This document shows positions 1-40,644 of a DNA stretch of 40,644 bases, in pieces. Both the position numbers and the translations under genes were made by a program. The stretch comes from a virus. The first letter of the stretch is position 1, and each line of letters starts with the position of its first letter. Under the pieces are notes generated by a model. It was not told where the DNA came from. It made no database searches and saw only the letters and a list, made by a program, of their open reading frames with translations. The stretch lies in UHGV virus genome UHGV-0202126; one strand, given 5' to 3'.

Positions 1-336
1 ATGGATCAGATACTAGAAGCGTATAAGGGAGTTTACAACTTTCAGATAAAAGATGGCAAAGTATGTCCGCCAAAGTATAAATTACCTAAAAAAGTAAAAG
101 AAAGATGTGACTATTTTGCAGAAGATATGGAGCACGGACTTTCTTTTCTAGGAGCATTAACATTTATCCTTGCTTATTCCGAAGAGAATTGTAAGAAGGA
201 CTATGCCTTGGCATTAACAAAAGAATGGCTGCCACTCAATCAAGAAGTAGAAGAATGGTTTAGAAAGTTTCGCGGTGTCGGAGAAATGTTGGTAGCTGTC
301 TATTTGATTTATGGATTAGAGGAGGACGGCGAATGA
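1..336 (+). CDS. hypothetical phage early protein (111 aa)
   Basis: ORF begins with ATG at base 1. An RBS for it (AAGGAG + 7 nt) sits at the window end (40632-40644) if the sequence is circular. No recognisable motif. Confidence 0.5.
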   Translation: MDQILEAYKGVYNFQIKDGKVCPPKYKLPKKVKERCDYFAEDMEHGLSFLGALTFILAYSEENCKKDYALALTKEWLPLNQEVEEWFRKFRGVGEMLVAVYLIYGLEEDGE

Positions 337-5607: not shown

Positions 5608-5828
5608 ATTGGGGGAATTTCTTTCAAGACATTCAAAAATGGATGCAGTCATCCAATGAGTTCATGAAGCAACATCCGATCACATCTGATGAATATTGGC
5701 AATGGCTAATTGAATCAATGGGAATGCTAGGAAATAAATACAATAACCATCCGGTTGCTATTAGGTTTTTATCTGTGTTAATAGAAATTCAGGATGACAA
5801 TTTCAAAATCGCTATGGGGAGGAATTGA
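5604..5828 (+). CDS. hypothetical protein (74 aa)
   Basis: ATGA overlap with rusA. No recognisable motif. Confidence 0.45.
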   Translation: MNWGNFFQDIQKWMQSSNEFMKQHPITSDEYWQWLIESMGMLGNKYNNHPVAIRFLSVLIEIQDDNFKIAMGRN

Positions 5829-6367
5829 GTTTGGCTGAAAAACTGACTAAAGATACACTAGCTGCAATCACTCAAGAGGTTGTAAAAATTGAAGCTATGA
5901 AAGGAAAAGAAAGAAAGCGAGAACGAAGGAATTGGAAACTGAGGAACACAACTCTTTTATTAAAAAAGTATCAAATGCTTCGTGAACATTGCGAAGGTGT
6001 AATACCGAAATTGACAGAATATGAAAATAGTATATTTGATCCAGAAGAGTTAAATCTCGAAACTTTGATGAAGTATAAGGCTCGGACCAAGGAGATGTTA
6101 GACTACTTTGATCTAATGTTCTCTTCTTATTGCCAATACTGTCATAATCAAGGTCTGATGGCTGAAAGAAGGTTCAATATTATTCGTCAATTATATGTTT
6201 TCGAAAATTCAAATGAGTATAAGTCAAAGAATGATCTAGCTGCTTTTTACAATGTTGATTCTAGAACAGTTGATCGAGACATCAAGAAAGCCAGTGAGGA
6301 ATTATCAATTTTCCTTTTTGGTATTGATAGTTTGGATGATTTGTCTCATGTCCTTTTCTTGTCTTGA
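5825..6367 (+). CDS. late-gene transcriptional activator (ArpU/RinA-like, sigma region-4-type HTH)
   Basis: 180 aa. C-terminal AAFYNVDSRTVDRDIKKASEEL resembles sigma-70 region 4.2. It sits immediately upstream of the packaging genes, as ArpU-family regulators do. TTG start. Confidence 0.5.
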   Translation: MSLAEKLTKDTLAAITQEVVKIEAMKGKERKRERRNWKLRNTTLLLKKYQMLREHCEGVIPKLTEYENSIFDPEELNLETLMKYKARTKEMLDYFDLMFSSYCQYCHNQGLMAERRFNIIRQLYVFENSNEYKSKNDLAAFYNVDSRTVDRDIKKASEELSIFLFGIDSLDDLSHVLFLS

Positions 6368-6764: not shown

Positions 6765-6791
6765 GGCACCCTTTGTGGGTGTCTTTTTTTT
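6765..6791 (+). terminator. rho-independent terminator after the YbjQ-like moron
   Basis: Hairpin CACCC-TTTG-TGGGTG followed by T8. Confidence 0.6.
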
Positions 6792-6817
6792 GTGTAAAAA
6801 GAAGGAAGGTGAATATC

Positions 6818-7243
6818 ATGACGGACAAACAACGAATTTTTGCAGATGAATATTTAAAAGATCTGAACGGCACGCGAGCTTATAAGGTGGCCTATCCCAA
6901 CGTTAAAAAGGATTCCTCAGCAGCTACTGCCGCAGGAAGATTGTTGAGAAATGTTGAGATTAAATCTTATATAGATGAACAGCTCGAACAAATGCATAAC
7001 GAACGAACGGCCGACGCAAAAGAGATTCTAGAATATTTAACAGCAGTTATGCGCGGTGAGGAAACGGAGACAGTTGCAACAGCGAAAGGACTCTATGATG
7101 GAGTTGAAGTTAGTGCTAAAGACCGCTTGAAGGCGGCTGAACTTCTTGGAAAACGTCATGCGCTGTTTACCGATAAATCCGAAGTGGCAATTATAGAGCC
7201 ACCGCAATTTATTGACGACACAGGTGACTTAGATGGCAGTTAA
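6818..7243 (+). CDS. terS: terminase small subunit
   Basis: MTDKQRIFADEYLKDLNGTRAYKVAYP is the classic Terminase_2 N-terminus. RBS GAAGGAAGGTG. The ORF track starts it at an upstream in-frame ATG (6773). Confidence 0.8.
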   Translation: MTDKQRIFADEYLKDLNGTRAYKVAYPNVKKDSSAATAAGRLLRNVEIKSYIDEQLEQMHNERTADAKEILEYLTAVMRGEETETVATAKGLYDGVEVSAKDRLKAAELLGKRHALFTDKSEVAIIEPPQFIDDTGDLDGS

Positions 7244-8528
7244 GAAGATATCCCAATTTTTGCCTAAAGCCTTTCATACAACTTGGCGTGCCGCTTTAAA
7301 TCAAAATATTTTGAATATTGTTGAAAAAGGCGGTCGTGGTTCTGGTAAATCATCAGATATCGCGCATATTATTATTCAACTGATCATGCGTTATCCAGTA
7401 AATGCTGTAGCCATTCGTTACGTAGGAGAGAACATTGAGCTATCTATTTATGAACAATTGAAGTGGGCAATTGAAGAGCAAGGTGTATCGAGCTATTTCA
7501 AGGTCAACAAAAGCCCAATGAGAATTACATATCTGCCTAGAGGAAACTACATTACTTTTAGAGGTGCACAAAATCCAGAACGGATCAAATCTTTAAAGGA
7601 TAGCAAGTTTCCTTTCGCGATAGCTTGGATTGAAGAATTAGCAGAGTTTAAAACAGAAGAAGACGTAACGACCATTACAAACTCCCTTTTACGTGGCGAG
7701 CTTGCTGATGGTCTTTTTTATAAATTCTTTTATAGTTACAACCCACCGAAAAGAAAACAGAGCTGGGTAAATAAAAAATATGAGACCAGTTTTCAGCCGA
7801 AAAATACATACGTTCACCATACAACCTATAAAGACAATCCCTTTATAGCTAAAGCCTTTATAGAAGAGGCAGAAGCGACAAAGGGACGTAATTTAAGGCG
7901 GTATGATTGGGAGTATTTAGGCAAAGCCATCGGTTCAGGTGTTGTTCCGTTCGATAATCTTCAAGTAGAACCGGGCAGTATTACGGATGAGATGGTTGCG
8001 AACTTTGACAACATCAGAAATGGTCTCGATTTCGGATATGCTACTGATCCACTAGCGTTCGTTCGTTGGCATTATGACAAAAAGAAAAATGGGATTTATG
8101 CTATCGATGAAATCTATGGTCAAAAAATAAGCAATCGAGAATTCGCTGGAAAAGCCAAATCAAAAGGCTATCAAACAGACAGGATAAATGCAGATTCAGC
8201 TGAACCTAAGTCAATTGCAGAGTTAAGGAACGAACACTTTATGACAAATGTTTATGGAGTCAAAAAAGGTCCTGATTCTGTAGAGTACGGGGAACAATGG
8301 CTGGATGATTTAGATTTTATCTGCATAGACCCTTTACGAACGCCGAATATTGCAAAAGAATTCGAGAATATCGATTATCAAACGGATAAGGACGGCAACC
8401 CAAAGCCAAGACTTGAAGATAAAGACAATCATACGATTGATGCAACTCGATATGCTTTTAACGATGATATGTACGCGAAACAGGATATGAAGCAGAAAAT
8501 GGACGCAGCCAAATTCTATTTTGGCTAG
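7233..8528 (+). CDS. terL: terminase large subunit (PBSX/Terminase_3-like)
   Basis: 431 aa. Walker A EKGGRGSGKS. Overlaps the terS stop. Followed by the portal gene. Confidence 0.8.
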   Translation: MAVKKISQFLPKAFHTTWRAALNQNILNIVEKGGRGSGKSSDIAHIIIQLIMRYPVNAVAIRYVGENIELSIYEQLKWAIEEQGVSSYFKVNKSPMRITYLPRGNYITFRGAQNPERIKSLKDSKFPFAIAWIEELAEFKTEEDVTTITNSLLRGELADGLFYKFFYSYNPPKRKQSWVNKKYETSFQPKNTYVHHTTYKDNPFIAKAFIEEAEATKGRNLRRYDWEYLGKAIGSGVVPFDNLQVEPGSITDEMVANFDNIRNGLDFGYATDPLAFVRWHYDKKKNGIYAIDEIYGQKISNREFAGKAKSKGYQTDRINADSAEPKSIAELRNEHFMTNVYGVKKGPDSVEYGEQWLDDLDFICIDPLRTPNIAKEFENIDYQTDKDGNPKPRLEDKDNHTIDATRYAFNDDMYAKQDMKQKMDAAKFYFG

Positions 8529-8543: not shown

Positions 8544-10073
8544 GTGGATAAAGGAGTTACTTTTTTACGTGATCATCGGTATCACAAAAATGCAAATGCA
8601 GTGTTTAGGATGTCACAAGAAGATTTCGAAGCTTCCGATTTCGAAAGTGAAAAATGGATTCTTAAATTAGAAAAGTTTATCAATCGACATCGAACGGAAC
8701 AGCTACCTAGATTGCAAGAATTGAAACGGTACTACCTAGCAGATAACAATATTAAGTATCGACCTGCTAAGACAGATGAATTCGCTGCAGACAATCGAAT
8801 TGCGAGTGATTTCTCGAGATATATTACCATTTTTGAACAAGGGTATATGTTAGGGCAACCCGTTCAGTACAAAAACGAAAACGACGAGTTGCAGCAACAG
8901 ATTGACGAGTTTAACAAGCGCAATAACGAAACCTATCATAATGTTTTAATAAAAACGGATTTGTCCATCTATGGGCGAGCGTATGAGCTTGCAACTGTTG
9001 GGTTGGACGAAAAGCAAGCATTTGTAAAAATAGTGAAATTGGACCCTGAGAAGACATTTGTTGTATATGACGATACAACAGACAATAATTCACTATTTGG
9101 CGTTTATTACTACACAATTGATTATGGGAATGGAGAAAGGAAAGATTTCGTTAACGTCTACACCAGCGACATGGTTTATATCTATCTGAATGATAATCAG
9201 GAAGAACGCGGCCTGCACTTAGACGACTACGATGATTATGCTTTTGACGGAGTGCCAATCAACGAATACGCAAATAATGAAGATCGAACAGGAGCTTACG
9301 AGCCTGTTTTAGATGCCATAGACGCTTATGATCTATCACAATCAGAACTGGCAAACTTTCAACAAGATAGTATGGATGCGATTTTAATGATCACTGGCAA
9401 TCCTTACACAGGAACTGCGAAAAACGACCTAGACGAAGAAGGAAACATTGTTCCTAATTCGCGCTTGGCCGTTTCTTTGGCATTTAAACGAGCTCGAATC
9501 ATGATTATGGATGATAATCCTAATCCTAATGGTTCGACACCAGATGCGAAGTATCTAGTTAAGGAATATGATGCAGCTGGATCGGAAACCTATAAGCAAC
9601 GCTTAGTCGATGATATCTTACGTTTTACATTCACGCCAGATACGTTGGATACCAATTTTAGCGGGACGCAATCTGGTGAAGCAATGAAATATAAACTCAT
9701 GGCTGCTGACAATAGGCGAGTGATGCAACAAAGATTATTTGAAAAGGGATTGATGAGACGCCTACGCTTAGCAGTCAATATTTGGCGAGTTAAAGGGAAT
9801 GAATCGACGGCGTATGAAGATATCAACGACACGAATATTATCTTTACCGCTAATGTTCCTAAATCTGATAACGAAATTGTTTCTTTAGCTAGCCAATTGT
9901 ACGGAACAGTATCTGATGAAACTCTATTCGAGATTCTAAACACAGTAACTGGTATTGATCCAGAAGTGGAGTTAGATCGGATCAAAAAAGAGTCCGCCAA
10001 AGAATCAGATCCAAGGCGTCCGAGTGAAATCGATAAGAATGCTAAGGATAAAGAAAAACAGTTTGGAGAGTGA
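8544..10073 (+). CDS. portal protein (SPP1 gp6-like)
   Basis: 509 aa. Position after terL. Acidic C-terminus. Confidence 0.75.
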   Translation: MDKGVTFLRDHRYHKNANAVFRMSQEDFEASDFESEKWILKLEKFINRHRTEQLPRLQELKRYYLADNNIKYRPAKTDEFAADNRIASDFSRYITIFEQGYMLGQPVQYKNENDELQQQIDEFNKRNNETYHNVLIKTDLSIYGRAYELATVGLDEKQAFVKIVKLDPEKTFVVYDDTTDNNSLFGVYYYTIDYGNGERKDFVNVYTSDMVYIYLNDNQEERGLHLDDYDDYAFDGVPINEYANNEDRTGAYEPVLDAIDAYDLSQSELANFQQDSMDAILMITGNPYTGTAKNDLDEEGNIVPNSRLAVSLAFKRARIMIMDDNPNPNGSTPDAKYLVKEYDAAGSETYKQRLVDDILRFTFTPDTLDTNFSGTQSGEAMKYKLMAADNRRVMQQRLFEKGLMRRLRLAVNIWRVKGNESTAYEDINDTNIIFTANVPKSDNEIVSLASQLYGTVSDETLFEILNTVTGIDPEVELDRIKKESAKESDPRRPSEIDKNAKDKEKQFGE

Positions 10074-26332: not shown

Positions 26333-26544
26333 GAATAATGCAAAATAAGACGTTTGAAATTTTGAAATGGGTGGCCGCAATTGTCATTCCTGCGCTGGCG
26401 ACATTTGTTGGTGTGGTAGGAAAGGCGGTTAATTGGGAGTACACCGATATCACGGTAATCATTATCACAGCGCTAGGCACTTTTTTGGGAACCGTTTTGG
26501 GGGTATCAAATCGAACATACAAGATGTTTTCAGCAGATGAATAG
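26329..26544 (+). CDS. holin
   Basis: 71 aa. Two TM helices and a charged C-terminus. ATGA overlap with the upstream gene. Overlaps the endolysin start. Confidence 0.65.
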
Positions 26545-27847
26545 GAGAGAATACATGAAAAAGAAAATTATTGTAGGAGCTATTGTAGCTCTTTTTTTGT
26601 TGCCTTTTTTTCCGAGTAACGTACAAGCTGCGAAAGGTGATCAAGGCGTTGATTGGGCTGTATATCAAGGAGCACAAGGGAAATTTGGGTATGGCTCGGA
26701 TAAATTTTCGATTAGTCAAATCGGTGGATACAATGCTGGTGGTTTGTACAATCAGTGGACTTATTCTAGTCAAGTAGCATCGACGATCGCACAAGGCAAA
26801 CGAGCGCATACCTATATTTGGTATGACACGTGGGGAAGTATGAGTATTGCAAAAACAACAATGGATTACTTTTTGCCTAAGATTCAAACGCCGAAAGGGT
26901 CAATCGTAGCGCTTGACTTTGAACATGGTGCTTCAAGCAACAAACAAGCCAATACAGAAACCATTTTGTATGGCATGCGGCGAATTAAACAAGCCGGTTA
27001 CACTCCGATGTATTATTCGTATAAACCATTCACGCTTCAGTATGTGAACTATCAGCAAATTCTAGCGGAGTTCCCTAACTCGTTGTGGATGGCTGCCTAT
27101 CCGAATTACAATGTAACGCCAAAACCTGTCTGGAGTGTTTTTCCAAGCATGGAAGGCGTAGCAATCTATCAGTTTACATCTACGTATGTCGCTGGTGGCT
27201 TGGACGGTAATATTGATTTGACAGGTATTACAGATAACGGCTATAACGGAGCTATCAAAGACGATGACGGCAAAGTTACTGTGAAGCCTGATACTGAAAC
27301 GCCTGCGATTGATCAAGGTCAGCAAGCGAACGAAACGCCTAAGAATGACATCAAAGCTGGATTCAAAGTTAAAGTGAACTTCTCTGCTTCTACTTGGTCA
27401 ACCGGCCAAGCGATCCCTCAATGGGTCAAAGGCAATAGTTACACCGTTAAGGAAGTAAGCGGAACGAAAGTATTGCTCGATGGCATCATGAGTTGGATCA
27501 ATCGCAAGGATGTTGAAATCTTGCAAACGACAAGTGTAGCTCCTTCTACAGCAAGCACTCACGTTGTCCAATCAGGTGAGACTTTGAGCGGTATCGCTAG
27601 TAAGTATGGGACAACATATCAAGCGTTAGCGAGCCTAAACGGACTAGCTAATCCGAATTACATTTATGTTGGTCAACAACTGAAGGTTTCGGGAACGGCT
27701 AGTGCATCAAGAGTTTATGTTGTCCTTTCAGGGGATAACTTATCAACGATCGCTCAAAAACTTGGGACGACTTATTCTAGCTTGGCTCAAAAAAATGGCA
27801 TTGCGAATCCGAATCTGATTTATCCAGGACAACGCTTAGCGTACTAA
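26537..27847 (+). CDS. endolysin: signal peptide + GH25-like muramidase + SH3b-like domain + 2x LysM
   Basis: 436 aa. [25 protein letters not shown] looks like a signal peptide. GVDWAVYQG resembles GH25. The two LysM repeats are [17 protein letters not shown]...YVGQQLKV and [17 protein letters not shown]...YPGQRLAY. Confidence 0.75.
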
Positions 27848-28023
27848 TAAACTAGACTTCAGCTTAATTGGATGCTCTGCACAAATGACCCGAAAGGCAA
27901 CACAGCTGGTGGCTTCCAAGATTTCTATGAAACTCGCTGGTATCACGATATTAAGTGACATTAAAAAAGAGTTTAGAAGAGAATGCGCTTGCAAGATATT
28001 AACAAAAGAGCTATTATGAATGT

Positions 28024-28053
28024 GTAAGTTTTACCAGAACTTACTTCTTTTTC
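28024..28053 (+). terminator. terminator-like hairpin
   Basis: GTAAGTT-TTACCAG-AACTTAC followed by TTCTTTTTC. Confidence 0.4.
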
Positions 28054-28076
28054 ATAACTAAGTTTCATCTTGATAG

Positions 28077-28108
28077 CAACCAGTCGTGTGCGAGCTGGTT
28101 GTTTTTTT
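28077..28108 (+). terminator. rho-independent terminator
   Basis: CAACCAGTCG-TGTG-CGAGCTGGTTG followed by T7. Confidence 0.6.
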
Positions 28109-28304
28109 GTGGAACTTAGAAACATGAGTGTATCATTTGCAAAGAAATCGGTTTCTAGGTAACATCTACTCTATTGGGAAGTCACTCGCCCATAAAAAAA
28201 AGGGAACGTCAGATACAGTTACTTGGGGAAGTGGACTGTGGGGAAGATCTGACGTTCTATTTCTTTATTGTAACACGTTTAAAAAATAATAATACTCATT
28301 TAAA

Positions 28305-28376
28305 GTACCCTTAGTTCAATTGGTAGAATACTCCGGTTCATATCGGAAGATGCGGGTTCGAGGCCTGCGGGGTACA
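28305..28376 (+). tRNA. tRNA-like element (possibly degenerate tRNA-Met/CAU-type). Probably linked to the attachment site.
   Basis: Acceptor stem GTACCCT/GGGGTAC (7 bp, one G.U) with discriminator A. D-arm GTTC/GAAT. T-arm GCGGG-TTCGAGG-CCTGC. No encoded CCA. The anticodon arm is irregular: candidate loop TTCATAT, but the stem pairs poorly in every register. Confidence 0.5.
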
Positions 28377-28380
28377 TAAA

Positions 28381-28410
28381 AAGACTACTGTAAAGGTAGT
28401 CTTATTTTTT
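28381..28410 (+). terminator. rho-independent terminator directly after the tRNA-like element
   Basis: AAGACTAC-TGTAAA-GGTAGTCTT followed by ATTTTTT. Confidence 0.65.
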
Positions 28411-28928
28411 ATATTATAGAAGCTTTATCAAGATGTCGATTAATAGAATTACAATTAATAGCCAAAGCGTTAACCTTTTCCATAATGGAGTTTTCCCGCG
28501 GAAAATTGTTATATCTTCATGTATTTTCTTTCGAATCTTCTTAATTTTCCTATCCGTCATGGTAGTCACCTTGATTGCGTTTTCTTTATTCTAACAAATG
28601 ATGAGGCAAGTAATCAATGGTATTTTCCAATATAAAGATATGATCTGCATAAACTTAAACAACTACCCTCTCGTAACTCTATCATAATTTTTGTTTTTCC
28701 GATCACAGCATACTTTTTAACAACGAATTGTTTTCTAATATTATAACGCCCCGCTTTTGCCCCGCCGAATTTAAATCGGTATGCATTGATATAAGTAGAA
28801 AAAGCATGACATAGCAATTTTTAAGGTTCATGGATTTCGCTATATATAGCTGTTTTAGCTTATTTAAATCACATTGATTTATACAAAATGTTAATTAATT
28901 AGTGTGAAATCCCTTATTTTTTCTAGTT

Positions 28929-30158
28929 TTAAGGAAGTTGATTTTTGGTTTTTAAAGATTGCCCCGCTTTTGCCCCGCTATCAAGTTTTTTAAGCATTTG
29001 ATCAAATTGAGCGATCGTTTCTTTACGCTTATCCCCAGTTATATGAGCATATATGTCTAAAGTAGTTTTTATATTTGAATGACCTAGAAGTAATTGAAGG
29101 GACTTTGGGTCTGTTCCTGCTTGAATCTGCAAAGCAGTATACGTGTGTCTCAGTCCGTGTAATGTAATTCTTGGTAGATTAGTTTTATTTATTATAATAT
29201 CAAATTTAGAACCTACATCTCTTGGGATAAGTGGAGAACCATCTTTTTTACAAAATAGATATTTTGATTCTCGGAAGACTAAAGGAAAAAGAGCAGCATA
29301 TTCTTTCCTTAGCTCTATCCAACTTTCTAGTTGTTTGTATGCTACCTCTGGTATAGGAACAATCCTATTAGAACTTTTATTTTTTGGTGGGAAAACTTTA
29401 TAACTGCTTTTCAGTTGATTCGAAGCAGGTGATCCTAGTGTTTTTGAGATATTGATTTCCTTTGTAATCGGATAATAATCATTAATATACAAGGCACAAG
29501 CTTCACCTATTCTAAGCCCACCGTACATTAGCAAATAGAATAAAGCTAGGTCTCTTTGTTTCTCTAAAGTAATATAATAGCTGGTCTCTTTCCTTTTTTT
29601 ATTTATTTCAAAAGAACAGTAATCTCTAAACTTTTGAATATCAACTGGTTCCCAGAATTTTTTATTTTCTTCTGAATCTTCATAATAAGGTATTTTTATG
29701 TCTGAAATTGGATTGACTTTGAAATATCCGTCTTTGACAGCCTGTTTTGCAATCATTTGAGCTATTTGATTTATCGCCAACAGAGAATTTCTTTTGTATC
29801 TTTTAGATAACTCATTTAATTTTTTTTGATAAAGATTATGAGAAAGTTTGTTTAATCTCATTTGTTTAAATGTATTTTTTAATGTATTGAGGAAGGTTTC
29901 TCGAGACCGTAAAGACGTTTCTTTAACAGAACCTTTATAGGTATCAAACCAATTATCTGCGTAATCCTTAAAGAGTATATTGGGATTCTTAGCCACGGTT
30001 CCGTCTTTAACATCAATATAAGCTTCCGCAGCTGCATACTCCGCTTCTGGTTTCGTGTCAAATCCACCTTTGCTATGCTCAGTTTTTTTACCTGTAATGG
30101 GATCAACGTAACGAATACGATACTCCCATTTTTTACCGCGTTTTCTGAATGTAGCCAT
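28929..30158 (-). CDS. int: tyrosine site-specific integrase with AP2-like arm-binding N-terminal domain
   Basis: 409 aa. N-terminal MATFRKRGKKWEYRIRY is the Arm-DNA-bind pattern. C-terminal LHGLRHTY...TLDIYAHI are the box II / catalytic Tyr motifs. Transcribed towards the tRNA-like element. Confidence 0.85.
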   Translation of the reverse strand: MATFRKRGKKWEYRIRYVDPITGKKTEHSKGGFDTKPEAEYAAAEAYIDVKDGTVAKNPNILFKDYADNWFDTYKGSVKETSLRSRETFLNTLKNTFKQMRLNKLSHNLYQKKLNELSKRYKRNSLLAINQIAQMIAKQAVKDGYFKVNPISDIKIPYYEDSEENKKFWEPVDIQKFRDYCSFEINKKRKETSYYITLEKQRDLALFYLLMYGGLRIGEACALYINDYYPITKEINISKTLGSPASNQLKSSYKVFPPKNKSSNRIVPIPEVAYKQLESWIELRKEYAALFPLVFRESKYLFCKKDGSPLIPRDVGSKFDIIINKTNLPRITLHGLRHTYTALQIQAGTDPKSLQLLLGHSNIKTTLDIYAHITGDKRKETIAQFDQMLKKLDSGAKAGQSLKTKNQLP

Positions 30159-31292: not shown

Positions 31293-31469
31293 ATGTCGCA
31301 AGATTTAATTACACAAATCAAGATTGCATTGGTCAAGAAAGAAAAGAATCAAGCTTGGTTAGCTAAGCAGCTAAATATTTCAACTGCTTATATGTCTGAC
31401 ATTATGAATGGAAAACGAAGTCCGAAAGAGAAAATCAAAGAAATTAAGGCTGCTTTGGACTTGGAATAG
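31293..31469 (+). CDS. Cro-like small HTH protein (58 aa)
   Basis: RBS GAGGGAGAG upstream of the ATG. AWLAKQLNISTAYMSDIMNGKR is an XRE-type HTH. Below the ORF-track cut-off. Confidence 0.6.
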   Translation: MSQDLITQIKIALVKKEKNQAWLAKQLNISTAYMSDIMNGKRSPKEKIKEIKAALDLE

Positions 31470-37548: not shown

Positions 37549-37782
37549 ATGGATAAAACGCAAAAAATTAATTTCAATGGTGGGTATGTGGAACTTTTTG
37601 TTCCGCTTCCACCTGTTTATGAATTAGGAAAATGGAAGATAAGAGTAATAGGAAAAGTAATTGGCTCTAATGAAATTACAAAAGCCGAAGGAAAGCGAAT
37701 CCTTATCAAAAAAGGATTCACTACCAACGGCAATAAAGAATGGGAGTTCTATAAAAATCTTACGATTTTGTACGACTTGTAA
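37549..37782 (+). CDS. hypothetical protein (77 aa)
   Basis: RBS GGAGAG upstream. Its 3' end overlaps the convergent minus-strand gene by 23 nt. Confidence 0.45.
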   Translation: MDKTQKINFNGGYVELFVPLPPVYELGKWKIRVIGKVIGSNEITKAEGKRILIKKGFTTNGNKEWEFYKNLTILYDL

Positions 37783-38473
37783 ATTCAATTGCTTCATCTG
37801 CTTTAAGTTCAGCTGAAATGAATAGTGCAGTGGCAGTAAGGAATCCCTTCATGTCTTGGATGTTTTTATCTTCATGGACTCTTACAAAATGGGTTTCATC
37901 ATTGCCAATCCAGACTGCTGCTTTAGCAAGAGCTTGAATTTTAGGAAATTCTGAAAGATTTTCATCAATTACTTTCCCTAAAAATTTTGATTTCACATTA
38001 TCCTCATTTTCTGGCTGTTTATGAATAACGTATTCCTTGATTAAAAATTCAATGGCTTTTCTATACCCAATTCCTGCAATTTGATCTAATCCTTGTGCTT
38101 CCGCTTCTAAAGATTGCTCATAAATGGTTTTGAATGCTGGAAAAGTGATGTTTACAATTTCTGGGAGATTGTTTACATGTTTAACCTTATAAGTATAAGG
38201 TATTTTCTTACCAATTTCTGCAATAGTTGATGAGCCAAAACTATTTTTTCTAAATGGAAATGCTTGAATATGAAATTTTTTACAGTTTCTCCGTGGGCAC
38301 TGCACAAAAAAAGCAACAGCATTTTCTAAATTATTAAAAGAATCATATGTCATTGATGAGAAAACGATTTGGGAACCTGGTTGTCCACAATGAGGACAAA
38401 ATTCATCAATATCAAACTCGTCTGAGGAAGTTGAGGAAGTTTGGGGATAGCGTACAGTTAGTGTTTGTTTCAT
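37760..38473 (-). CDS. zinc-ribbon + DUF4145-like protein (antisense moron, candidate defence/abortive-infection factor)
   Basis: 237 aa. N-terminal CPHCG...CPRRNC four-cysteine ribbon. C-terminal YRKAIEFLIKEYV...AKAAVWIGNDETHFVRVHE resembles the DUF4145 GN..aH core. Own extended -10 promoter. Opposite orientation to all neighbouring genes. Confidence 0.55.
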   Translation of the reverse strand: MKQTLTVRYPQTSSTSSDEFDIDEFCPHCGQPGSQIVFSSMTYDSFNNLENAVAFFVQCPRRNCKKFHIQAFPFRKNSFGSSTIAEIGKKIPYTYKVKHVNNLPEIVNITFPAFKTIYEQSLEAEAQGLDQIAGIGYRKAIEFLIKEYVIHKQPENEDNVKSKFLGKVIDENLSEFPKIQALAKAAVWIGNDETHFVRVHEDKNIQDMKGFLTATALFISAELKADEAIEFTSRTKS

Positions 38474-38538: not shown

Positions 38539-40128
38539 ATGCAACTAAGACCTTATCAACAGGAAGCGCGAGAAGCTATCCAGCAGCAGTGGAAAGACGA
38601 AAAGAAACGAACTCTTTTAGTTCTCCCCACCGGATGCGGAAAGACAATCGTATTCAGTAAGGTCATCGAGGATCGAGTGAAAAAGGGCGAGCGTGTGCTC
38701 GTCCTAGCTCATCGCGGTGAATTACTTGACCAAGCTTCTGACAAGCTACAAAAGTCCACAGGACTTAAAACTGCAACCGAAAAAGCAGACCAAACTAGTA
38801 TCGGAAGTTTTTTCAGAGTAGTCGTCGGATCTGTTCAAACTTTAATGAGAGAAAAACGCTTATCACAATTTCCACCTAATTTTTTCGACACGATCGTAGT
38901 AGACGAAGCACACCATTGTATCAGTGATGGCTACCAACGAGTATTGAAACACTTTGAAAATGCAAATGTCTTAGGTGTTACAGCAACACCCGATCGTGGA
39001 GATATGCGGAATTTGGGATCGTACTTTGAAAGTTTGGCCTATGAGTATTCATTACCACAGGCAATCAAAGAAGGATACTTATCACCAATTAAGGCACTTA
39101 CTTTACCCCTAAAACTAGATTTATCAGCAGTAAAACAACAGGCTGGGGATTTTTCAACTAAAGACTTAGGAACGGCACTTGATCCCTATTTACATCAAAT
39201 TGCAGACGAAATGGCAAAACACTGTAAAGACAGGAAGTCAGTGGTTTTCTTGCCATTAGTAAAAACGTCCAAAAAGTTTCGTGATATTTTAAACGATCGT
39301 GGGTTTAGAGCTGCAGAAGTTAATGGAGAATCTAAAGATCGCGCTGAAATTTTGGAGGACTTTGATCATGACAGATACAACGTCCTTTGTAATTCGATGT
39401 TGCTTACAGAGGGTTGGGACTGCCCGAGTGTCGATTGTATTGTAGTTCTTCGACCAACAAAAGTTCGTTCTCTATATTCACAAATGGTTGGACGGGGAAC
39501 ACGACTAAATGAAGGCAAAGAAGAATTGCTTCTATTAGATTTCTTGTGGCATACAGAGCGTCACGAGCTATGCCATCCAGCCCACTTGATTGCCAGCACT
39601 GACGAAGTCGCTAAGAAAATGACTGAGAATATCGAAGAATCTAGCGAAACAGGTTTTGCTATCGATCTTGAGGAGGCAGAGGTGCAAGCAGAAAAAGACG
39701 TTGTTTCCGAACGTGAAGAAGCGTTGGCGAAGCAGTTAGCAGAAATGCGAAAGCGAAAACGCAAGCTTGTTGATCCGCTTCAATTTGAAATGTCAATCCA
39801 GGCAGAAGATTTATCAAGTTATGTTCCATCATTTGGATGGGAAATGGCACCGCCATCTGATAAGCAAGTATCAGCGTTAGAGAAATTGGGGATTTTGCCA
39901 GATCAGATTGATAATGCCGGCAAAGCGGCTAAAATGTTAGATCGCTTAGAAAGACGACGCGTAGAGGGGTTAGCCACTCCTAAACAAATTAGACAGCTTG
40001 AACAACGTGGCTTCCTGAACGTGGGTACGTGGAGTTTTGAATCTGCTAGTAAAATGATCGGACGGATTGCAGCTAACGGCTGGAGACTACCTCAAGGAAT
40101 CACTCCAAGTACGTACACAGAGGAGTAG
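38539..40128 (+). CDS. DEAD/DEAH-box (SF2) DNA helicase
   Basis: 529 aa. Motif I LPTGCGKT. Motif II VVDEAHH. Motif VI QMVGRGTR. Part of the replication module. Confidence 0.8.
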   Translation: MQLRPYQQEAREAIQQQWKDEKKRTLLVLPTGCGKTIVFSKVIEDRVKKGERVLVLAHRGELLDQASDKLQKSTGLKTATEKADQTSIGSFFRVVVGSVQTLMREKRLSQFPPNFFDTIVVDEAHHCISDGYQRVLKHFENANVLGVTATPDRGDMRNLGSYFESLAYEYSLPQAIKEGYLSPIKALTLPLKLDLSAVKQQAGDFSTKDLGTALDPYLHQIADEMAKHCKDRKSVVFLPLVKTSKKFRDILNDRGFRAAEVNGESKDRAEILEDFDHDRYNVLCNSMLLTEGWDCPSVDCIVVLRPTKVRSLYSQMVGRGTRLNEGKEELLLLDFLWHTERHELCHPAHLIASTDEVAKKMTENIEESSETGFAIDLEEAEVQAEKDVVSEREEALAKQLAEMRKRKRKLVDPLQFEMSIQAEDLSSYVPSFGWEMAPPSDKQVSALEKLGILPDQIDNAGKAAKMLDRLERRRVEGLATPKQIRQLEQRGFLNVGTWSFESASKMIGRIAANGWRLPQGITPSTYTEE

Positions 40129-40449: not shown

Positions 40450-40611
40450 ATGAATCTATATCAAGTTTGGTACACAAAAACTGATAATAAATCATATACA
40501 AAGGCTGAGAAAGCAGATAACGAGGAACGTGCAAAGATTCAGGTTTTTGAGAAAGTTGACAATGTGGTTGAAATTGTCGAGATCAAGAAATTAGGATCGA
40601 TTGTAGGTTAG
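40450..40611 (+). CDS. hypothetical small protein (53 aa)
   Basis: RBS GGAGG.. upstream of ATG 40450. Below the ORF-track cut-off. Confidence 0.35.
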   Translation: MNLYQVWYTKTDNKSYTKAEKADNEERAKIQVFEKVDNVVEIVEIKKLGSIVG

Positions 40612-40644
40612 TTCCACAATCGACAACTATCAAGGAGTTTTTTT

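Follow-up and report, generated by a model that had tools for sequence, protein, structure and literature searches.

The two ends of the window and the start of ORF1

The stretch of DNA analysed here, referred to below as the window, is the 40,644-nt viral genome record UHGV-0202126. Its first base opens an ATG-initiated open reading frame (ORF1) and its last bases form a purine-rich hexamer followed by a run of thymines. Read in the order that they take when the two ends are joined, the features of this region are the following (L numbers designate public contigs, described below):

38539–40128, plus strand: DEAD/ResIII helicase (Pfam), the last large gene before the end of the window
40450–40611, plus strand: 53-aa gene directly upstream of ORF1 over the join, called in L001–L006 and L010
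40612–40644, plus strand: 33-nt intergenic spacer from the 53-aa gene to ORF1
40632–40637, plus strand: Shine–Dalgarno core of ORF1, AAGGAG, read directly and conserved in L007 and L009
40638–40644, plus strand: T7 spacer between the Shine–Dalgarno core and the ATG at base 1, read directly
1–336, plus strand: ORF1, 111 aa, phrog_834, function unknown; the circle is opened at its start codon
2229–4466, plus strand: PriCT_2/AAA_25 primase, full-length match to phrog_2597 (DNA primase)

The first-pass annotation had proposed that the end of the window supplies the ribosome-binding site of the gene that starts at base 1. Direct rereading of the letters bears out the observation on which this proposal was built: the last 13 nt are AAGGAG (40632–40637, plus strand) and TTTTTTT (40638–40644), and bases 1–3 are the ATG of ORF1. 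When the ends are joined, they read AAGGAG-N7-ATG, i.e. a purine-rich core complementary to the 3' end of 16S rRNA and located 5–10 nt before the start codon, as expected of a Shine–Dalgarno sequence, with the 7-nt spacer found in many other genes of the phage. A 5–6-nt Shine–Dalgarno core with a spacer of 6–9 nt precedes at least 19 of the 46 plus-strand ORF starts (hand count from the ORF table), a lower bound given that the longest-ORF rule mis-sets some starts. A chance coincidence is unlikely, since AAGGAG with a 5–9-nt spacer lies ahead of only 0.26% of the genome positions and of 7 of the 916 plus-strand ATGs; from the genome's own motif frequencies, the chance of finding such a sequence before base 1 is about 0.002–0.008.

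Two observations indicate that base 1 is the true start of ORF1 and that the window boundary does not cut through a longer gene: (i) residues 1–106 of ORF1 align with positions 2–108 of the 109-position phrog_834 profile (E = 1e-31) and (ii) gene callers picked the identical ATG in the contigs that contain DNA upstream of ORF1. ORF1 is thus intact and equipped with a normal ribosome-binding site.

Querying public assemblies with the exact ORF1 protein returned 13 contigs. Seven of them, originating from seven different assemblies, cross the 40644|1 join at 100% identity: L001 (scaffold_63), L002 (SRR8090844), L003 (SAMN05826758), L004 (ERZ652564), L005 (ERZ652457), L006 (SAMN10275310) and L010 (ERZ652358). 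The Shine–Dalgarno sequence that the first reading had obtained by joining the ends therefore exists as contiguous DNA, and all seven contigs display the same gene order, namely the helicase (529 aa), a 73-aa gene, the 53-aa gene, ORF1, a 51-aa gene and two 92-aa genes. In two mosaic relatives, L007 and L009, a different gene lies upstream of ORF1 and the homology with the window begins at position 40608/40609; the Shine–Dalgarno sequence is nevertheless kept, as GAGGAGG-T6-ATG in L007 and as AAGGAG-T7-ATG in L009. That the Shine–Dalgarno sequence and its spacer are retained despite the exchange of the upstream gene indicates that the last ~25–36 nt of the window belong functionally to ORF1. 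None of the contigs carrying ORF1 has a bacterial gene ahead of it. When the 1.2-kb region formed by the joined ends was compared by megablast with 50,697 phage records, no match was obtained; in a viral contig collection, exact-pattern scans for the join and for the 43 nt that open the window were equally negative.

No plus-strand terminator-like site was found by scanning the region from the helicase gene to ORF1, suggesting that ORF1 is carried by the same early transcript and hence is probably co-transcribed with the early genes. Note that an 11-bp hairpin (40596–40624) straddles the point where the 53-aa gene stops. We considered it as a terminator or regulator of ORF1 and rejected it, because it scores on the minus strand only, has no plus-strand T-run and is not conserved in L007 or L009.

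The replication module around the join

To place the join in a broader context, we used the homologues of the helicase found by scanning one genome per bacterial species, which gave 80 loci. The closest ones belong to Enterococcus (96%, on a 1.48-Mb scaffold of Enterococcus sp. AZ128), the remainder being spread across the Bacillota. In 75 of these 80 prophage loci, a primase homologue is encoded downstream of the helicase gene and on its strand, and the gap between the two genes, which ranges from 0 to 6.5 kb, is occupied by variable small ORFs. RusA homologues are present in 71 loci, after the primase gene wherever the order was listed, while the genes found upstream of the helicase gene in the homologous loci encode an SMC-like ATPase, an AAA_24 protein and a 172-aa protein. 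The conserved succession of helicase and primase genes implies that the window was cut in the variable spacer of a widely conserved replication module and that joining its ends restores this module.

Two further features of the helicase region deserve mention. A 237-aa gene with no Pfam hit lies on the minus strand just upstream of the helicase gene (37760–38473), within the otherwise plus-strand replication module, and is also present in L001, L002 and L004. Helicase homologues with 81–85% identity occur in metagenome-assembled genomes labelled Veillonella and Gammaproteobacteria (L100 and L102), which probably reflect binning errors and not a true host range.

The temperate-phage gene order described in the first-pass annotation stands as far as the Pfam and PHROG matches are concerned, with the exception of two elements. 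One is the attachment site, dealt with below. The other is the late regulator: the protein in question (180 aa, 5825–6367, plus strand) matches HTH_11 below threshold only (17.4 bits for a cut-off of 25) and falls into phrog_1558, a family of unknown function; its homologues sit after RusA in several prophages.

Searches with the whole window against a collection of 50,697 phage genomes gave patchy, single-gene matches (71–84%), the coverage of the query by any one record of this collection not exceeding about 6%. Judged from its sequence, the genome is that of an unreported, mosaic temperate phage, and the closest helicase loci together with the phage matches point to an Enterococcus-like host. 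A literature search on the lysogen assembly GCA_002891055 / NBSM01 gave no result.

Circle closure, packaging genes and attachment site

The window corresponds to scaffold_63 of assembly VATT16-1_SAMN05826621 (ENA ERZ28648719; 40,699 nt) minus a 55-nt end overlap (40,699 - 55 = 40,644): the first 55 nt of scaffold_63 are identical to its last 55 nt, as an exact direct overlap. Position 9274 of the scaffold became base 1 of the window, so that the window join, scaffold position 9273|9274, is internal to the scaffold, and the point at which the scaffold closes lies elsewhere in the window:

31372–31426, no strand assigned: closure point of scaffold_63, the 55-nt stretch found at both its ends and once in the window

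The comparison was carried out with the first 19,609 nt (L001) and the last 18,181 nt (L022) of scaffold_63, which together cover 39,218 nt of the 40,699 once their small overlap is taken into account; each of the two occurs without any mismatch in the doubled window. Closure was not driven by a repeat, since the 55-mer is single-copy and the whole circle contains no exact repeat of 21 nt or more, whether direct or inverted. The exact lysin of the window is carried by no further contig on record, which fits with the window being the scaffold_63 assembly. Such a direct terminal overlap, also known as the assembler k-mer or 'DTR' criterion, is used to recognise complete circular viral contigs. 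Tandem prophages, concatemers, cos ends and short exact terminal repeats can likewise yield a circular assembly path. Circular assembly alone does not tell whether the molecule was a circle, permuted linear DNA, a concatemer or a set of tandem prophages.

The packaging genes are the following:

6773–7243, plus strand: TerS of the SPP1/SF6 gp1 type (PDB 3zqp/3zqq, E = 3.5e-21; PF03592; phrog_51)
7233–8528, plus strand: TerL of the SPP1 gp2 type (PDB 2wbn, E = 3.7e-81; PF04466, PF17288)
8544–10073, plus strand: portal protein of the SPP1 gp6 type (PF05133, E = 2e-100)

The nuclease domain of TerL (residues 232–413) is ~70% identical to SPP1 gp2 (2wbn) over 182 aa, the ATPase half of the protein matches gp2 of Shigella phage Sf6 (E = 5e-13), and a gene for a Mu F-like minor head protein follows the portal gene. 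2WBN and 2WC9 are structures of the nuclease domain of SPP1 gp2, and 3ZQQ is a structure of SF6 gp1 (PMC6316719). An SPP1-type terminase favours permuted virion DNA: by homology, the virion DNA of the window phage would most likely be packaged by a headful mechanism, and be terminally redundant and circularly permuted, which would explain the circular assembly.

The lysogeny functions comprise a PF00589 integrase, an HTH_3/HTH_19 repressor and a Peptidase_M78 protein. The features that define the integration module are:

28929–30158, minus strand: tyrosine integrase (PF00589, PF14659, PF14657)
about 28866–28894, plus strand: attP region, at the boundary of homology with integrated copies

In the window, these elements display an attP arrangement, with the lysin gene (26537–27847) followed by about 1 kb of cargo and by the integrase gene. 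An identical integrase adjoins host genes in L011 (a 3.26-Mb contig), L014–L018 and L020. The identity between the window and these lysogens extends from the integrase gene through 63 nt beyond its stop codon and ends at window position 28866; in the lysogens, the last 29 nt of a 659-aa host gene encoding a MucBP-domain protein, including its stop codon (28892–28894), come from the phage. The end of the homology within this gene locates attP at about 28866–28894 and integration at the 3' end of the MucBP-domain gene. In the assemblies that were searched, no contig linked the body of the window phage itself to host DNA; we infer its integrated state from other phages, whose integrase is identical.

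The site is thus not where the first reading had put it, at a tRNA. The tRNA-like gene of the window (28305–28376, plus strand; Rfam RF00005, 38.6 bits; 'tRNA-???' according to ARAGORN) was rejected as the attachment site, as it lies ~490 nt from attP and the host flank is the MucBP-domain gene; it belongs to the cargo. Its anticodon loop comprises 6 nt (UUCAUA, CAU-like but one base short), and it is followed by a weak hairpin and T-run at about 28382–28410. This gene may be either a tRNA in decay or a functional tRNA of an unusual kind.

The slot that separates the lysin gene from attP (27848–28865) is a swap site: in L013 (11610–12511), L019 and L021, a SocA_Panacea-domain gene and a 129-aa gene replace the tRNA-like gene next to the same integrase and a similar lysin. 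Among these contigs, L021 (ERZ28648487 scaffold_81, 39,741 nt), which comes from the same cohort, has an identical 892-aa tail protein and the same tail-gene layout but a different early region (Sak/HNHc_6), and looks like a recombinant sibling phage. In L011–L020, the 100% identical integrase and the 63-nt stretch downstream are paired with at least three early/replication modules: Sak with DnaB_2, ERF with Phage_rep_org_N, and IstB-like with HTH_36. There is strong modular mosaicism around this single integration module.

Origin of the circular record and comparison with known phages

The 55-nt overlap, the contigs that cross the join, the helicase–primase synteny in 75 of the 80 loci and the SPP1-type terminase converge on the simplest of the readings initially put forward, one phage genome, complete and either circular or permuted, that was opened at a gene start. 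We put at roughly 0.9 the probability that the window is a complete temperate phage genome, that it is a circular assembly cut at the ATG of ORF1 and that the phage is likely a pac-type headful packager. The following course of events best accounts for the record. A metagenome assembler closed the complete genome (40,644 bp) of a temperate siphovirus, whose host is Enterococcus-like, into a circle; the 55-nt k-mer overlap was then trimmed and the circle re-opened at the ATG of ORF1, presumably by a rotation step. The cut parts ORF1 from its own 5' leader and leaves the Shine–Dalgarno sequence at the far end, in the 13 final bases. In the actual phage DNA, ORF1 lies among the variable small ORFs that separate the helicase gene from the primase gene, in what is probably one rightward early/replication operon, and would be translated from its Shine–Dalgarno sequence, as its neighbours are. 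The source molecule would most likely be DNA, either replicating or packaged in virions, of a pac-type headful packager akin to SPP1. Inside the capsid, such DNA would have a linear form, with terminal redundancy and circular permutation, and after injection it would circularise and integrate via attP at about 28866–28894.

If the circle derived instead from two tandem prophage copies at one attachment site (attL–phage–attP–phage–attR) and not from free phage DNA, the assembly could look similar, as a tandem array holds an attP-like junction and offers a closed path too; moreover, the identical integrase does occur integrated in bacterial chromosomes. Yet, in the assemblies examined, no contig joins the lysin side or the specific body of the phage to host DNA, and the attachment site is not at a tRNA, so that we regard this explanation as improbable; the form of it that had been envisaged earlier, with two tandem prophages sharing a tRNA, has lost its basis. 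Note that even with tandem prophages, 40644|1 would be an ordinary internal point and the conclusion on the Shine–Dalgarno sequence would be unchanged. A linear virion genome with fixed ends, either cohesive or in the form of a short exact direct terminal repeat, could likewise have given rise to the circle by ligation or collapse of its termini, and assemblers circularise such genomes as well. This is very improbable in view of TerL, TerS and the portal protein, all closely homologous to their counterparts in the headful machinery of SPP1/SF6; the packaging of SPP1 proceeds by pac-initiated headful cutting (PMC6316719). Finally, the idea that the window ends are the real ends of a linear element or of a truncated contig, with AAGGAG-T7 as a chance match, has nothing for it but the frequency of AAGGAG on the purine-rich plus strand (21 copies versus about 16 expected from base composition) and is refuted by the seven contigs that contain the joined sequence at 100% identity and by the closure of scaffold_63 through a 55-nt overlap located elsewhere; the probability of encountering such a Shine–Dalgarno sequence before a random position, about 0.003, also speaks against it.

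Returning to the complete phage genome that we favour, the state of the phage in the source samples is a separate matter. In the infant-gut samples, several of which contain it at 100% identity, the phage genome is seen only in the attP form (excised or circular) and in no case attached to host DNA, and all integrated copies of its integrase belong to other phage bodies. On this basis, the circle might represent a phage population that is actively induced or that persists outside the chromosome, as opposed to a resident prophage, a suggestion that we consider tentative and rather doubtful.

The practical consequences mainly concern curation: the record is a complete genome whose ends hold no biological information, and the sequence should be treated as circular in analyses of gene order or termini. 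The attachment site is reassigned from a tRNA to the 3' end of a gene for a surface protein with a MucBP domain. The predicted headful packaging, for its part, bears on potential generalised transduction in Enterococcus. Opening a circular contig at a start codon parts the gene from its ribosome-binding site, a familiar artefact of writing circles as linear records; the result is an ordinary one and should not surprise phage specialists.

Among known phages, the temperate Enterococcus siphoviruses phiFL1/phiFL2, VEsP-1 and EH-TP1 share with the window patchy nucleotide matches (72–84%) in the terminase, holin/endolysin and regulator genes as well as a modular gene order, but none of these records goes beyond about 6% of the query. 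As an assembly, the window resembles the DTR-type circular metagenomic contigs: its parent scaffold has an exact and unique 55-nt end overlap, the trimming of which gives the window length. Nothing substantial sets it apart from them, except that the record was also rotated to begin at a start codon, and it is because of this rotation that the ribosome-binding site lies at its far end. The packaging genes are most akin to those of SPP1 and SF6, with TerL resembling SPP1 gp2, TerS resembling SF6 gp1 and a portal protein of the SPP1 gp6 type. SPP1, in contrast, is a virulent Bacillus phage, whereas the window phage, with its integrase, cI-like repressor and ImmA-like peptidase, is temperate and associated with Enterococcus; its replication module (SMC-like, AAA_24, DEAD helicase and PriCT_2 primase) is unrelated to that of SPP1.
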